A DNA stretch of 64,000 nucleotides from Terriglobia bacterium (lineage in GTDB: Bacteria > Acidobacteriota > Terriglobia > Terriglobales > Acidobacteriaceae). The position numbers and the translations under genes were made by a program. Below the pieces are notes generated by a model that saw nothing but the letters and a program-made list of their open reading frames with translations, had not been told where the DNA came from and searched no databases. Every line of letters starts with the position of its first letter. Within the stretch, counting starts at the first letter, position 1. The DNA is taken from contig JAIQGK010000013.1 in NCBI GenBank assembly GCA_020072645.1, positions 89,809 to 153,808 of the forward strand, given 5' to 3'. Below, piece after piece: positions 1-32,663 of this stretch.

Positions 1-565
1 TGACCAGCAAAATTGTAGTGCCGCCGGAGCGCATGTCCGCCAGCAGTTTGGCAATCTGCAATGCTGAGTCAGGATCCACGTTGGAAAAAGGCTCATCGAG
101 CAAGAGGAGCCGCGGCTCGTGAAAAATCGCCCGCGCCAGAGAAAGCCGCTGGCGCATTCCCTGTGAATACTGGCCGATTCGGCGGTCCAGCTTGTCATCC
201 AGGCCGACACGCTGCATCGCCTGGGCCAGAGGCTCATCAGAGTTCACGCCGTAAAGCTGGCCAAAGAAGCGCAGGTTCTCCATGCCGGAAAGCTCGTCAT
301 AGAGCAGCGGCGCGTGGGCCATATAGCCCATGCGATTGAGCGCCTGCTTGTTGTGAATGCCATAAATCTGGATGCTGCCTTCCGTCGGCTCATTGAGTCC
401 GGCAATCATGCGCAGCAACGTGGATTTGCCTGCGCCGTTTTCTCCGCGCAGTACATAAAACCGCCCCGGCTCCAGCGCAAGCGAGACTTTTCTTACCGCG
501 GCGGTGCGGCCATAAATCTTGGAGACGTTTTCAGTGCGGACAGGAGGAGCGTCGGGAGTCGTCAG
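1..565 (-). CDS. ccmA: ABC transporter ATP-binding protein, probable heme exporter CcmA (3' end runs off the window)
   Basis: My own minus-strand translation from ~565 to 1 gives VRTENVSKIYGRTAAVRKVSLALEPGRFYVLRGENGAGKSTLL (Walker A), YSQGMRQRLSLARAI (signature-like) and LLLLDEP (Walker B). It is absent from the ORF track because there is no stop inside the window. It lies directly 3' of ccmE. The start is uncertain: only CTG at 565-563 is available. Confidence 0.8.
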   Translation of the reverse strand, partial: MTTPDAPPVRTENVSKIYGRTAAVRKVSLALEPGRFYVLRGENGAGKSTLLRMIAGLNEPTEGSIQIYGIHNKQALNRMGYMAHAPLLYDELSGMENLRFFGQLYGVNSDEPLAQAMQRVGLDDKLDRRIGQYSQGMRQRLSLARAIFHEPRLLLLDEPFSNVDPDSALQIAKLLADMRSGGTTILLV

Positions 566-574
566 CGGCGGACC

Positions 575-1021
575 TCAGTATCCTTTCGACGGCTGCTGTG
601 CGGCCGGCGCTCCGGGCTGTTGCTGCTGCGGAGCGTATTTTGAGGCGCATTTAGCCTGTAGCTCATTGGCGTAAAAAACGCCATCGTGCTTATAAACACC
701 CATGGCCAGCGCCTGGGCGTTGTCCTTGAAAGTGTCCGGCGGCGGCTCTGAGCCTTTATAGACCACACGCAGCGTCTCGCCGTTTTCCACCAACTGGAAA
801 TCGGCATGCGGGCCGCTCATCTTGATGGATCCGGGAAGTACATTGCCGGCAACGCGCAGGTTCTTCTTGTAAACATCATCACCCATCGCGTGCAGCTCTT
901 TAATGGTGACGTAATAGCTCTTGCTTTCCTGCGCGCCCAGATAGGCCAGATAAGCCACGGTCAACACGATCAGCATGATCGCGGCCCCAAACTTAAGGTA
1001 TTTATTGCGTTCTTGTGACAT
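575..1021 (-). CDS. ccmE: cytochrome c-type biogenesis heme chaperone CcmE (CxxxY variant)
   Basis: 148 aa with an N-terminal TM anchor (FGAAIMLIVLTVAYLAYLGA) and an OB-fold-like body (YYVTIKEL...LRVAGNV...FQL...LRVVYKG..PD.F). The C-terminal AKCASKY aligns with the AKHDENY heme-binding region of classical CcmE. Confidence 0.85.
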   Translation of the reverse strand: MSQERNKYLKFGAAIMLIVLTVAYLAYLGAQESKSYYVTIKELHAMGDDVYKKNLRVAGNVLPGSIKMSGPHADFQLVENGETLRVVYKGSEPPPDTFKDNAQALAMGVYKHDGVFYANELQAKCASKYAPQQQQPGAPAAQQPSKGY

Positions 1022-11082: not shown

Positions 11083-11281
11083 CGATCCGTGAAAATCCGC
11101 GCTCATCCGCGGTAAGTCCTTTCTTTTCCGATCCCGGCGATGTCGGCGATTACGTGCGATTCCGTCGATTAGGCGCGCTACGCACGCCCACCCTCCCCCT
11201 ATGTACACTCAATTCCACCCAAGAATCGGCAGAGGGTCGCACCCCAAAATGACAAAACGCAACGGCGGTTACCGTTGCGTC
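11083..11281. repeat. composite intergenic repeat, family A, copy 1
   Basis: Shares blocks with 30696-31000: ttttccgatc(c/a)cg..gatgtcggcgat(t/c)acg, a ccctcccc C-tract block, and ggcagagggtc.ca.ccc...acaaaacgcaacgg-loop-ccgttgcg. It starts with a triplet of 10-nt phased atccg(t/c)g units (11085, 11095, 11105). Confidence 0.8.
11250..11279 (-). terminator. terminator-like hairpin inside repeat A copy 1
   Basis: On the minus strand, cgcaacgg-taaccg-ccgttgcg is followed by ttttgtca. The identical 8-bp stem recurs at 30978-30998. Confidence 0.55.
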
Positions 11282-17116: not shown

Positions 17117-17536
17117 ATGGAGTGGACCATGAAGGAAATCAGCGCATATCTCATCTTTAATGGAAACTGTCGCGAGGCAATGACGTTTTACCAGAAATGC
17201 CTTGGCTCTGAACTGCAACTGATAACGTTCGGCGATATGGGCGGCAATGTGCCACCGGATGCCAAAGACCGGATTGCCCACGCCAGAATCAGCAAGGGCG
17301 CCGCGGTTTTGCTGGCCTCAGACAATATGCCGGGAATGGCGTTCAACGCCGGCGATAACTATTTTGTTTGCATACAGTGTGAATCTGTACAGGAGGCAGA
17401 TAAATTGTTTGCTGCGCTCAGCGAAAAAGGCAAAACCATACAGCCGCCGCAGGAAACTCCCTGGGCCAAACGTTTTGCCATGTTCACGGACCAATTCGGG
17501 ACCAAGTGGATGTTGAATTGTGCGAAGGCACAATAA
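17117..17536 (+). CDS. VOC/PhnB-like (3-demethylubiquinone methyltransferase-fold) protein
   Basis: AYLIFNGNCREAMTFYQKCLG ... FGTKWML is typical of PhnB/YjdN-type VOC proteins. An alternative start is the ATG at 17129. Confidence 0.75.
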   Translation: MEWTMKEISAYLIFNGNCREAMTFYQKCLGSELQLITFGDMGGNVPPDAKDRIAHARISKGAAVLLASDNMPGMAFNAGDNYFVCIQCESVQEADKLFAALSEKGKTIQPPQETPWAKRFAMFTDQFGTKWMLNCAKAQ

Positions 17537-17605
17537 TGCTTCTTTGGAATCGCGTCCAATTAGGGCGCGATTCCGTGTTTCGCAGCGCGCAATGGCTTTT
17601 ACTGC

Positions 17606-18094
17606 TTACGGATTTGGGCGCGAAACGCTCAACGGATAAGAAGCAATTAGATACTCGGCCTGATCACTATCGATGGGGTCAAAATCGAAGATCCATTGGT
17701 CCGTATTAAAAGCCCGGACGCGGAAGTAATAGACCTTTCCTGCTTCAGCAGTGAAATGCGCAAGCGCTATTACTGATCCTGTGTTCGCGCACATATGGTG
17801 CTCGCCCGGTTCCACGGAGATTGAGAAATAGGAGTTGCGCTGATTGGCGCCAACCCAGGTTCCGTTCACCCCAATTTTTGTTTTAAAGCAACCTCCCAGG
17901 CAGCTTATCCGGCCAACATCCTGAATGAAGTAAACCCGCGCTTTTCCGGGTTCGGCTTGCGCGATCGCGTGTCTGGACTCATCCAGCTTAACTTTGAAGT
18001 TTGTATCTTTACGGCCGCAAGCTGCCGGGACAGGAGGCTCGTCCTGGACAAATGCGGATACGGCCAAAAACATCATGATGAGAGCGATTCTCAT
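17606..18094 (-). CDS. secreted hypothetical protein (DUF2846-like)
   Basis: 162 aa with a signal peptide (MRIALIMMFLAVSAFVQ). The pattern ARVYFIQD...KIGVNGTWVG...SYFSISVEPGEHHM...AGKVYYFRV resembles DUF2846. Confidence 0.55.
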   Translation of the reverse strand: MRIALIMMFLAVSAFVQDEPPVPAACGRKDTNFKVKLDESRHAIAQAEPGKARVYFIQDVGRISCLGGCFKTKIGVNGTWVGANQRNSYFSISVEPGEHHMCANTGSVIALAHFTAEAGKVYYFRVRAFNTDQWIFDFDPIDSDQAEYLIASYPLSVSRPNP

Positions 18095-30695: not shown

Positions 30696-31000
30696 TTCCG
30701 ATCCTGTTCTTCTCCGCGTCCCCGCGCCTCCGCGGTGAGCTTTTGTTTTTCCGATCACGCGCGATGTCGGCGATCACGGCAATTTCTTGTGCAGCTGGGG
30801 ATCCATGAATACCCTACCCCTCCCCTGGTCCCCATTTCTAAAGGACTTACACGATTCCTCCCCACGTGTCCCCATCCGTCCTTGTTGCAAACAAAGCCCT
30901 TTGTCTAAATCCTCCCCATTTGATCCCCATTTTGGCTGAGAGATCAGGCAGAGGGTCACAACCCATAAAGCACAAAACGCAACGGAATCTCCGTTGCGCG
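30696..31000. repeat. composite intergenic repeat, family A, copy 2 (expanded)
   Basis: Same block order as 11083-11281, with an extra ~110-nt C-tract/TCCCCA-box segment (30812-30930). It ends in the identical cgcaacgg/ccgttgcg hairpin (30978-30998), followed on the minus strand by ttttgtgc. Confidence 0.8.
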
Positions 31001-31089
31001 TGGCGATTGCTCGTGTGGCATCCCCACTATGCTCCTCGCTTGGGTCGGGAAGCATAATCCTAAAAAGCGGATCAGGGCTTTCTTTTCAC

Positions 31090-31356
31090 CTAATGTCGAG
31101 CAGCATACACCAATGCTGTGCATGACAGGATCACGATGGCTACCACGATTCCCGCCAAAAGCAAGTCGCTGGGCTCCCATGTTTTTCCTTGTGGGGTAGA
31201 AGCGGTTGGCGACGGCGCGTCTTTCTCGTTTTTGTTGACGCTTGAAGTTAACGCCTCTTTCTTGCCATCCTTTTCCCCGGTTCCAGCCTCAAGCTTGCTT
31301 TCGATTTCATCGAATACACAGGTTGCCATATTCGCCTTCGTCCTTTCTTCACACAT
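31090..31356 (-). CDS. hypothetical small single-pass membrane protein (88 aa; alternative start 31329)
   Basis: An acidic/Lys-rich N-terminal half, then a C-terminal TM helix (LLLAGIVVAIVILSCTALVYAA). It lies 56 nt downstream of the HEPN-like gene on the same strand and is lower in GC than its surroundings by eye. Confidence 0.5.
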   Translation of the reverse strand: MCEERTKANMATCVFDEIESKLEAGTGEKDGKKEALTSSVNKNEKDAPSPTASTPQGKTWEPSDLLLAGIVVAIVILSCTALVYAARH

Positions 31357-31412
31357 TCCTGAAGAAATGATGCCATAATCGAAGACAAACGGGAAGTCTA
31401 ATCAATTAGGCA

Positions 31413-32291
31413 TTACTCGTGGAGTTTCGTCGCCAAATGACGCATAAATGATCTGACCGCCATAAATATTTCCTCTGCTGTTTCATCTATGTAGGTACGG
31501 TCTACATGCATGGTTGGATTGCGCCATGCAGTTTTTATGTGCCCGATCTGTGCCGCCATTTCAGAAAAAAACAACTCATCCGGTGTTCTTGCGCCGGACG
31601 CCTTATAACGATCCGTCAACGCTTTGTCTATGTCGGCTAGATTCCTTCCCCAGTCGGGACGCGCAGGCAATCCGAGTTCTTTAACTAGAGCCTTGAGACC
31701 GGTTTCGATCACACGGCTGAGATGCATTACACAGGCTGTGGCCCGGCCAAGCGCCAAGCACTTCCCGGCTTCTTCGAGATCAAAAGCGGTTGATGGAAAT
31801 GCGTCCTGTACGCCTTTTCCCCACAGCTTTTCTTTCCGGTCACGTAATGACGAGGTCCCGACCAATGTGGCGGATGCTTTTTCGTCTTCCGTTTCTTGAA
31901 GATAGAACTCTGCGTGAGCGGGTGCTACAAATAAAAATAAGCGTGCATCCATCTCATCGCGAATACGGGAATCCAGCTCGTTTATTCCAGTGACGACATC
32001 TTGGTTGGTTACATCCTGGCTCAACTCGCTGCTTAACCGCTCAACATGAATTACAGATAGTTGTAGGCCGATCTTTTCACAATGATCTTTGATGGCGGCG
32101 TAAAACAGTGCCAATCCCTCTTTGTCGCCACTACTTAGCGTCGCATCTGGGGCACTCGTATAAAGCTTGACCCCTTCGAGCCGTAGAGTTTTTGAGATAT
32201 TGAGAGTATGCGCGGTCTTGACCTGCTCTAAGAGTCGGCCAATTTGATAGAAAGCACGGGCGGCAAACCTCTCCATTTTTTCACTCACCAA
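31413..32291 (-). CDS. hypothetical protein with a C-terminal HEPN-like (Rx4H) domain; candidate RNase toxin/abortive-infection effector
   Basis: 292 aa (TTG at 32291, ATG at 32276). The C-terminal ~125 aa look like a helical bundle: EEAGKCLALGRATACVMHLSRVIETGLKAL ... IGHIKTAWRNPTMHVD ... AEEIFMAVRSFMRHLATKL. The RNPTMH codons are at 31506-31523. The N-terminal ~160 aa are unrecognised. Lower GC by eye. Confidence 0.6.
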   Translation of the reverse strand: MVSEKMERFAARAFYQIGRLLEQVKTAHTLNISKTLRLEGVKLYTSAPDATLSSGDKEGLALFYAAIKDHCEKIGLQLSVIHVERLSSELSQDVTNQDVVTGINELDSRIRDEMDARLFLFVAPAHAEFYLQETEDEKASATLVGTSSLRDRKEKLWGKGVQDAFPSTAFDLEEAGKCLALGRATACVMHLSRVIETGLKALVKELGLPARPDWGRNLADIDKALTDRYKASGARTPDELFFSEMAAQIGHIKTAWRNPTMHVDRTYIDETAEEIFMAVRSFMRHLATKLHE

Positions 32292-32663
32292 GAAGCTGAT
32301 ACGGATGCTCGACCCAAAGGGAGGAGGATATCAAAAATCAGCTGTTCATTAGGACCGTTGCGCAGTGATTTCTCTCACCAGCAATAAAACACGGGGTATA
32401 TTATTTCAAAAATCTAGCCAACATAGTGAGGGTAAGCGGCTTCACCATCGATAAGAACCTCTCACACATCCGAAAATGCCTCCAAACGAGAAGAAATGTC
32501 AGGGAGTGTCACAGCACAACTTGAGCGGCGGCCTGCGAAGTCGTGCCGAAAGACGCCCTTTCCACAAACTCCTTACTGCCGTAGGCCCGCGCGCAGGCGA
32601 AGCCGGAGCGCCAAAGAAAAACCACCCAAACTTTACGCATCCTGTTTTACACTTCTTCCCGCC

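Follow-up and report, generated by a model that had tools for sequence, protein, structure and literature searches.

What does a small pair of compositionally foreign genes in an acidobacterial genome encode, where did it come from, and what might it do? The pair occupies positions 31090 to 32291 of a 64,000-nt stretch of a Terriglobia bacterium (GenBank assembly GCA_020072645.1, contig JAIQGK010000013.1, positions 89,809 to 153,808), which we refer to as the window. A first-pass annotation, made from the letters alone, had described a HEPN-like protein with a small membrane protein next to it and had proposed a toxin or abortive-infection module. HEPN ribonucleases (RNases) are core effectors of CRISPR, abortive-infection, and toxin-antitoxin (TA) systems. 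Here we trace the large protein to an unnamed HEPN-like family that is carried mainly as cargo of insertion sequences (ISs) and the small one to a rare but genuine partner of that family. Our best inference, to which we give about an even chance as a whole, is that a widespread HEPN-superfamily gene was acquired horizontally and is present in the cassette as a copy free of its transposase, and that the cassette would act as a latent RNase conflict module.

Gene starts and composition of the cassette

The cassette consists of two co-oriented open reading frames (ORFs) on the minus strand, 31413..32291 (292 aa, with a TTG start) and 31090..31356 (88 aa), separated by 56 nt. Both were found where the first-pass annotation had put them, and only their starts had to be moved. 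On the evidence of homologs and database gene calls, the large gene begins at a conserved Met6, an ATG at 32276, and encodes 287 aa (31413..32276 including the stop), the same length as the identical database cluster P0001; Met6 is nearly invariant in the family. Homologs likewise place the small-gene start at a conserved Met10, an ATG at 31329, which is kept in all of them and gives 79 aa (31090..31329 including the stop), the length annotated at NCBI for LAO76_20270 of an Acidobacteriia metagenome-assembled genome. Because these conserved ATG starts replace the maximal ORF starts, the intergenic spacer (31330..31412) measures 83 nt and not 56. Residue numbers throughout refer to the 292-aa maximal ORF.

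GC content averages 0.558 over the window and drops to 0.491 in the cassette, and GC at third codon positions (GC3) in the large gene is 0.49 against ~0.70 in the rpsB, rpsI, and rplM genes of the window. By both measures, the composition of the cassette is foreign. The impression of an AT-rich cassette in the first-pass annotation was thus borne out (49.1% against 55.7% for the window, in the lowest 0.6% of equal-sized, 1202-nt windows).

A conserved HEPN-like domain in the large protein

More than 365 homologs of the large protein were found, nearly all unnamed and from many soil phyla. An alignment of 62 homologs divides the protein into a variable N-terminal half and strongly conserved C-terminal ~140 residues, and D171, H190, R193, E196, W256, R257, N258, and H262 are among the invariant positions. 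The motif WRNPTMH corresponds to residues 256-262 and is preceded by a EEAGKCLALGRATACVMHLSRVIETGLKAL stretch. A survey of HEPN domains (PMC3710099), in which transposases are not mentioned, defines the domain by features that include a polar residue (N, D, or H) right after the conserved R and an acidic residue in helix 2, often within Ex3[K/R], and places the RNase motif at the end of helix 3. The same features are seen here. R257-x4-H262, the predicted catalytic Rx4H motif (R257-N-P-T-M-H262, codons 31506..31523, minus strand), is present in 62/62 homologs and in the structure model follows helix 237-255, at the start of the loop before helix 269-286. The polar N258 is present in all 62 as well, and N also holds this position in the divergent partners of L081, L094, and L095 described below. 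E196 lies within helix 184-205 of the model and is kept in 62/62 homologs, with K or R at position 200 in 48 of them (E196-x3-K200, codons 31692..31706, minus strand).

Profile comparison points in the same direction. The relative P0109, which is 39% identical to the window protein (E = 3e-42), scores 25.6 bits against the HEPN model PF05168, above its cut-off of 22, with profile positions 5-112 of 117 covered; other members reach 14-19 bits over the same span. The apparent link of the window protein itself to PF05168 is therefore transitive, through this relative. Among the 62 members, 22 match HEPN and 34 match Hypoth_Ymh (PF09509), weakly or below threshold; the best Hypoth_Ymh score, 19.4 bits, falls short of the cut-off of 25, with the alignment limited to profile positions 69-118. 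The model of the C-terminal domain (residues 150-292, codons 31416..31844, minus strand) is confident and all-helical, with a mean predicted local distance difference test score (pLDDT) of 91.5. Its top natural matches in Foldseek are the HEPN structures 2q00, 2hsb, 1ufb, 1o3u, and 1wol, at TM-scores of 0.48-0.68 (normalized to target length) and E-values of 0.2-1.3, and generic four-helix bundles score alike; on its own, the fold search is only suggestive. Taken together, the invariant motifs, their placement, and the P0109 profile match support a HEPN-like C-terminal domain.

These results support the central proposal of the first-pass annotation, namely, that WRNPTMH fits a HEPN RNase signature whose R and H should be conserved in homologs. 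The affinity to DUF4145 or Abi-type HEPN domains that it had suggested was not recovered, as neither is among the 25 most frequent profile matches of the 62 members and the closest profiles are PF05168 and, below threshold, Hypoth_Ymh. The Foldseek search that it had called for did put HEPN crystal structures at the top, only with weak E-values.

The N-terminal domain (residues 6-149, codons 31845..32276, minus strand) is variable and all-helical in the AlphaFold2 model, with helices at 11-33, 54-73, 77-89, and 96-115. As had been anticipated, it matches no profile. It is not a duplicate of the HEPN-like domain either, since comparison of the N- and C-terminal profiles with hhalign gave a probability of 0.1% for a tandem arrangement. 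Against PDB sequences, the family profile produced only insignificant matches to centrins, in the N-terminal region. The full-length fold search returned helical-repeat noise, with RnlA (6y2p_B) as a weak full-length match (probability 0.60), and a search of a viral structure library gave no match. A match to PHROG 32483 (E = 3.5e-6) leads to a family without an assigned function and is uninformative.

A small membrane protein strictly linked to the family

The small protein has a charged N-terminal half and a C-terminal hydrophobic helix, in line with the first-pass annotation. The predicted layout is that of a tail-anchored membrane protein in which a variable linker joins a conserved N-terminal segment to an invariant tail anchor. 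The transmembrane tail, LLLAGIVVAIVILSCTALVYAARH (codons 31093..31164, minus strand), is near-invariant even between homologs that are 47% identical overall, whereas the N-terminal half drifts. Codon changes in the tail are mostly silent, with 14 synonymous versus 3 nonsynonymous changes against L095 and 11 versus 2 against L081. For the small gene, the ratio of nonsynonymous to synonymous substitution rates (dN/dS) falls at 0.12-0.26; the large gene, compared with L085, has a ratio of 0.059. As judged from these substitution patterns, both genes are shown to be under purifying selection.

The protein has no profile match in Pfam, NCBIfam, or PADLOC and none among PDB sequences, and it is rare. 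Word-indexed, profile, and exhaustive HMMER searches of 1.8-5.8 billion proteins recovered only 10-12 clusters of homologs. Wherever the region upstream of an instance is visible, it holds a family member at a distance of 24-83 nt, which shows that the small gene is strictly linked to the family. The paired loci are the window, L087/L088 (in the same position upstream of rplM), L085/L086, L081-83, L091, L094, and L095; they represent at least five contexts with unrelated flanks, and the paired family members have diverged to 32% identity, with the motif forms RNPTMH, RNDVMH, RNFVAH, and RNHVMH. L085/L086 match the window only across 32280..31082, i.e., across the two genes alone, and the genes recur as a discrete 1.2-kb unit.

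The pairing is a minority variant all the same. It accounts for ~3% of the family, and >95% of members lack the small-protein partner; a hidden Markov model (HMM) of the small protein had no match in the 80 genome loci of our wider census. Thus, the pairing of a HEPN protein with a small membrane protein that the first-pass annotation had noted is co-conserved wherever the small gene exists and is nevertheless the exception within the wider family (0/80 loci). We also considered a general membrane-protein partner across the family and rejected it, because the downstream ORFs of the 80 loci are inconsistent and the HMM finds none.

The spacer between the genes carries a Shine-Dalgarno-like purine block, GAAGAAAGGACGAAGG (31335-31350), just 5′ of the small-gene ATG, and in an alignment of spacers from five lineages a purine-rich ribosome-binding block is conserved. 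The same alignment reveals a TATGGCATNAT motif at 31365-31376, ~40 nt before the small-gene start, which is kept in the equivalent spacers of L087, L091, L081, and L085 and might act as a regulatory site or as an internal promoter element. An RNA element in the spacer was rejected, as there is no conserved structure (z = −1.9, +0.96, and −1.5) and Rfam found nothing. An RNA element in the membrane-tail region was likewise rejected, since tail conservation sits at the peptide level and Rfam gave no match.

Some of the paired loci have features of their own. In L094 (positions 1-900), the N-terminal 60 residues of the family member are 73-83% identical to the window protein and its C-terminal HEPN domain, of the RNDVMH type, only 16-50%, a mosaic that suggests domain-level recombination within the family. 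In L085 (1545-1904) and L086 (1571-1891), the cassette is followed by a conserved ORF of 119 aa that has no Pfam match and occupies the place of the repeat-containing noncoding stretch of the window. Next to the divergent cassette of L081 lies a gene (317-853, minus strand) for a 178-aa protein with a HEAGH (zincin-like) motif, again without a Pfam match.

The wider family is carried as cargo by IS1595-family insertion sequences

In which context does the rest of the family occur? We took a census of 80 genome loci from many phyla, extended to 95 loci for the tabulation of IS ends. Clustering of neighbors in the 80 loci yielded one recurrent neighbor, a 300- to 340-aa protein encoded downstream and convergently in 46 of them. 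It is an IS1595-family DDE transposase with a zinc ribbon (Pfam PF12762 plus PF12760; NCBIfam NF033547, 190 bits with the cut-off at 75). Plus-strand ORFs of 300-400 aa that appeared coupled to the family gene downstream turned out to be shadow frames of this opposite-strand transposase and were discarded.

Terminal inverted repeats (consensus GGCAATAATATACTTGAC...) enclose both genes in 28/35 loci with an intact transposase, and the cargo-bearing elements are mostly 1.9-3.6 kb long. We take the ends to be ISNwi1-like and the elements to belong to the ISNwi1 subgroup in ISfinder. Among the 49 transposase-bearing loci of the 95, 31 have both IS ends, 9 have one, and 9 have none; the corresponding numbers for the 46 transposase-less loci are 0, 6, and 40. 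Perfect 8-bp direct repeats flank 18/28 elements, compared with at most 6/8 matching positions in 26 shifted controls. With perfect 8-bp target duplications at 18 of the 28 elements, the whole unit therefore inserts as one element. Overall, the family gene sits inside an IS1595-family IS in about half of the 95 loci. There it invariably converges on the transposase gene and has its start 7-30 nt from the IS end. Such carriage is the dominant context of the family. Elements of this kind are known, as a TnCentral preprint recognizes IS-like elements with passenger genes (tIS) as a special class, reported only for IS1595 and IS66. We found no paper that identifies an IS1595 passenger as a HEPN protein.

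The cargo-bearing elements have a third conserved gene, which encodes a basic protein of ~50-60 aa with a K/R-rich tail and the motif F(Q/E)RF..(I/V)(I/L)xVPK(S/A/T)E(I/L), without a match in Pfam or NCBIfam. It always occupies the interval bounded by the stop codons of the family gene and of the transposase, in either orientation (L005, 10621-10785, plus; L016, 6843-7271, plus; L030, 12118-12300, minus; L046, 9448-9624, minus; L059, 10859-11050, minus; L026, 11885-12040, minus; L089, 7832-8020, plus; and ~25 further loci), and is confined to loci with a transposase or its remnants. The IS ends are asymmetric. A −35-like TTGAC box is found in 25/28 transposase-side repeats versus 15/28 cargo-side repeats, and in 10/10 discordant pairs (L015, L018, L026, L040, L045, L051, L053, L060, L077, and L080) it is the cargo side that lacks it. 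This pattern suggests that selection may weaken expression of the cargo. In one Acidobacteriaceae genome, L025 (7146-13069) and L027 (7146-13074) are two 98% identical copies of a repeat of at least 5.9 kb, both at contig ends, that contains the family gene and a partial IS1595 transposase and is larger than a simple IS.

Five copies on plasmids lie among IS elements, TA genes (HipA, VapC), and HNH and SbcCD-like genes. On a Croceibacterium plasmid (L098, 3060-6897), a co-oriented gene for a 66-aa protein is located downstream, followed by a convergent SbcC/SbcD-like pair, and on a Komagataeibacter plasmid (L096, 3219-4831), a co-oriented gene for a 245-aa protein annotated as an HNH endonuclease starts 36 nt downstream.

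The window copy is free of the IS

The window copy lacks this setting. A tblastn search of the whole 64 kb revealed no transposase or transposase relic (nothing below E = 0.5), the window contains no gene for the small basic IS protein, and no IS end was found, the best score being 9.4, far from the cassette, versus at least 23.5 for true ends. The nearest full-length relatives of the large protein, 48-52% identical to it, include the IS-borne L089 and L090, which the window clade adjoins on the tree. The near relative L091 has no transposase and encodes a 67-aa homolog of the small protein 82 nt downstream. More generally, ~40 IS-free copies retain intact reading frames. IS-borne and IS-free copies are interleaved on a rough tree; therefore, the IS context appears to have been lost repeatedly.

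What the cassette might do

In the reading that we favor, the large protein would be a normally latent, metal-independent endoribonuclease whose site combines R257, N258, and H262 with E196 and, as in other HEPN enzymes, probably spans a dimer. We read it as an enzyme because the active-site residues are invariant and because the HEPN survey associates inactive domains with motif loss (PMC3710099). It is probably self-restrained, since most members persist as single genes without a recurrent partner. The variable N-terminal helical domain would be the likeliest regulator or sensor, and control of activation by this domain would account for single-gene members that have no antidote. In the paired variant, the small protein may bind the RNase through its conserved N-terminal segment, and its invariant membrane helix would tether or gate the enzyme at the inner membrane. 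The outcome would be growth arrest or RNA degradation in a genetic conflict, either in defense against phages and mobile elements or in stabilization of the carrier element.

Several results weigh against this reading. The large protein of the window has no match of its own in Pfam (E ≤ 10), NCBIfam, PADLOC, or PDB sequences, and the fold search gave E-values of 0.2-1.3, with generic bundles scoring similarly. A bulk Pfam scan of 114 neighbors of IS-free copies gave no defense-island enrichment; these neighbors are mostly housekeeping genes, with scattered RES, TIR, HipA, SLOG, and methylase genes. Association with phages is negligible, at 0/50,697 phage genomes and 9 occurrences in 2.9 million viral contigs (IMG/VR). 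PADLOC-DB 2.0 yielded 0 families for either protein at E ≤ 10, and no named defense or TA system in the Pfam, NCBIfam, and PADLOC searches matches the cassette, in agreement with the remark of the first-pass annotation that the architecture was not that of a named system. The examination of homolog neighborhoods that it recommended thus confirmed conserved pairing for the small gene and gave, in place of defense islands, IS1595 cargo as the dominant context.

How do other explanations compare? That the small ORF is functionally unconnected to the large one is highly improbable. The wider family does without the small protein, as chance adjacency would have it, but every small-protein homolog whose upstream region is visible comes after a family member, across at least five contexts and with partners down to 32% identity, and the small gene itself is under purifying selection. 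The domain could instead be noncatalytic and act as a sensor or scaffold that binds a nucleotide, RNA, or protein. Some HEPN families are indeed noncatalytic binding domains (PMC3710099), and 2hsb, which gave the best match in the fold search, is a member of a HEPN-T group whose site is atypical; the R, the polar N, the H, and the helix-2 E are nonetheless kept in 62/62 homologs, and with the survey linking inactivity to motif loss we regard this explanation as very unlikely. A classical TA pair, in which a constitutively active HEPN toxin is held in check by the small membrane protein through membrane sequestration, would fit the tight linkage, the co-orientation, and the conserved spacer and ribosome-binding site, and HEPN toxins are known both in TA systems and as transposon cargo, e.g., HEPN-MNT (minimal nucleotidyltransferase) in TnSod9. 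However, >95% of the family lacks this partner, and members occur as single genes in IS-free loci with no other recurrent neighbor, so constitutive toxicity is unlikely; neither MNT nor any other known antitoxin family is present, and the best-conserved part of the small protein is its membrane helix rather than a cytoplasmic binding domain. On balance, we consider a TA pair unlikely.

The remaining explanations start from the IS. The protein might serve the element itself, by processing or regulating the transposase mRNA or by coupling transposition to the state of the host, with the window copy a leftover without a host role. This would explain why the gene lies inside an IS in about half of the loci, why it faces the transposase gene convergently in every such case and starts close to the IS end, why a third, small basic gene is conserved there too, and why the TTGAC box is selectively lost from the cargo-side repeat, as if expression were tuned. 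We hold such an accessory role to be improbable, given the ~40 IS-free copies with intact reading frames and the strong purifying selection on the window and L085 genes without any transposase. Most IS1595-family elements, moreover, transpose without such a cargo gene. The TnCentral preprint treats those with passengers as a special class. A bolder version is rather unlikely in our judgment: the HEPN-family protein would be integral to the life cycle of the cargo-carrying IS1595 lineage, as an element RNase acting with the small basic protein in IS retention or in coupling of transposase and host state, and the window cassette would be a domesticated, membrane-tethered derivative reused for defense.

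Flanks of the cassette and other features of the window

A terminator-like hairpin of 10 pairs with a T-run (30977..30999, minus strand) was located by a consensus scan 91 nt downstream of the small gene, and the enclosing 125-nt 3′ region folds at z = −4.1, in line with the hairpin that the first-pass annotation had seen closing the cassette. Farther downstream are the ribosomal genes for L13, S9, and S2 (rplM, rpsI, and rpsB). The noncoding stretch that separates the cassette from rplM (30697-31008) shows 89% conservation in the relative L087 and shares two short segments with 11096-11265 of the window: 30719-30778 resembles 11096-11154 (60 nt at 80% identity), and 30947-30985 resembles 11228-11265 (39 nt at 87%). 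They are probably the “repeat element A” of the first-pass annotation, which is real to the extent of these two segments at 80-87% identity; no longer repeat was found.

Upstream of the large gene is a noncoding stretch (32277..32660; GC, 0.50) in which a promoter scan gave no sigma-70-like promoter and a position-weight scan gave no IS end. Beyond it, the opposite strand encodes a TonB_C protein and a membrane protein with DUF2157. Neither an Rfam match nor a tRNA was found in the window. The only other patch of comparably low GC (~0.49) is 17117-18094; it covers two small genes, a plus-strand ORF of 139 aa and a minus-strand ORF of 162 aa, the latter with a hydrophobic N terminus.

Significance

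Three aspects of this locus are new here: an unnamed HEPN family, a HEPN identity for IS1595 cargo, and the pairing of a HEPN protein with a membrane anchor. The family has >365 members in many soil phyla, is without a Pfam, NCBIfam, or PADLOC model, and is one on which we found no literature. Its regular carriage in a minimal IS, together with a third unnamed gene, makes it a tractable case for asking why some ISs carry cargo and raises the question whether an RNase on its own can be of advantage to a transposon or to the host. The rare coupling to an invariant, tail-anchored helix suggests that a HEPN enzyme may be tethered or gated at the membrane, an arrangement that we did not find described elsewhere. 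If the family does supply an element RNase, then ISs, which are normally defined by transposition functions only, would include a widespread lineage with three genes and a dedicated RNase module. Annotation sets for defense and mobile elements could be extended by the family and its IS ends.

Comparison with known systems

Among known proteins, the HEPN proteins of PF05168 (HEPN-T; stand-alone or MNT associated, with structures 1o3u, 1ufb, 1wol, and 2hsb) are most similar in build. They share with the family the predicted four-helix bundle, R-N-x3-H where helix 3 ends, and the helix-2 glutamate of Ex3[K/R], and one family member exceeds the Pfam threshold. The window cassette differs in that it has no MNT partner, its large protein has an extra, variable N-terminal domain of ~150 aa, and that protein is itself below detection by the Pfam model. 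The difference from HEPN-MNT TA systems is similar: no minimal nucleotidyltransferase adjoins the cassette, and the only partner is the 79-aa membrane protein. The members of Ymh (PF09509, Hypoth_Ymh), another HEPN family, occur alone, in fusions, or close to restriction-modification genes. Ymh gives the most frequent weak match, which covers the motif and the last helix; all scores are below its curated cut-off, however, only the last third of the profile aligns, and the context here is IS cargo rather than restriction-modification operons.

Abortive-infection HEPN proteins of the single-protein type (AbiD/F, AbiJ, AbiU2, and AbiV) and the RnlA/LsoA toxins resemble the large protein in combining a variable N-terminal region with a C-terminal HEPN domain, and their genes are mobile as well. 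They differ in that neither an Abi nor a PADLOC profile matches here and there is no RnlB-type antitoxin. With respect to context, the wider family fits the tIS of the IS1595 family, which have it as a passenger together with an IS1595 transposase and show GGCAATAATATACTTGAC terminal repeats as well as 8-bp target duplications, whereas the window copy has no transposase, IS ends, or small basic IS protein. Finally, the TA cargo of Tn3-family transposons belongs to another transposon family and comprises two-gene pairs with a known antitoxin, as opposed to the IS-borne gene without a recognizable antitoxin described here, but such cargo, including HEPN-MNT in TnSod9, sets a precedent for RNase-type conflict modules inside transposable elements.

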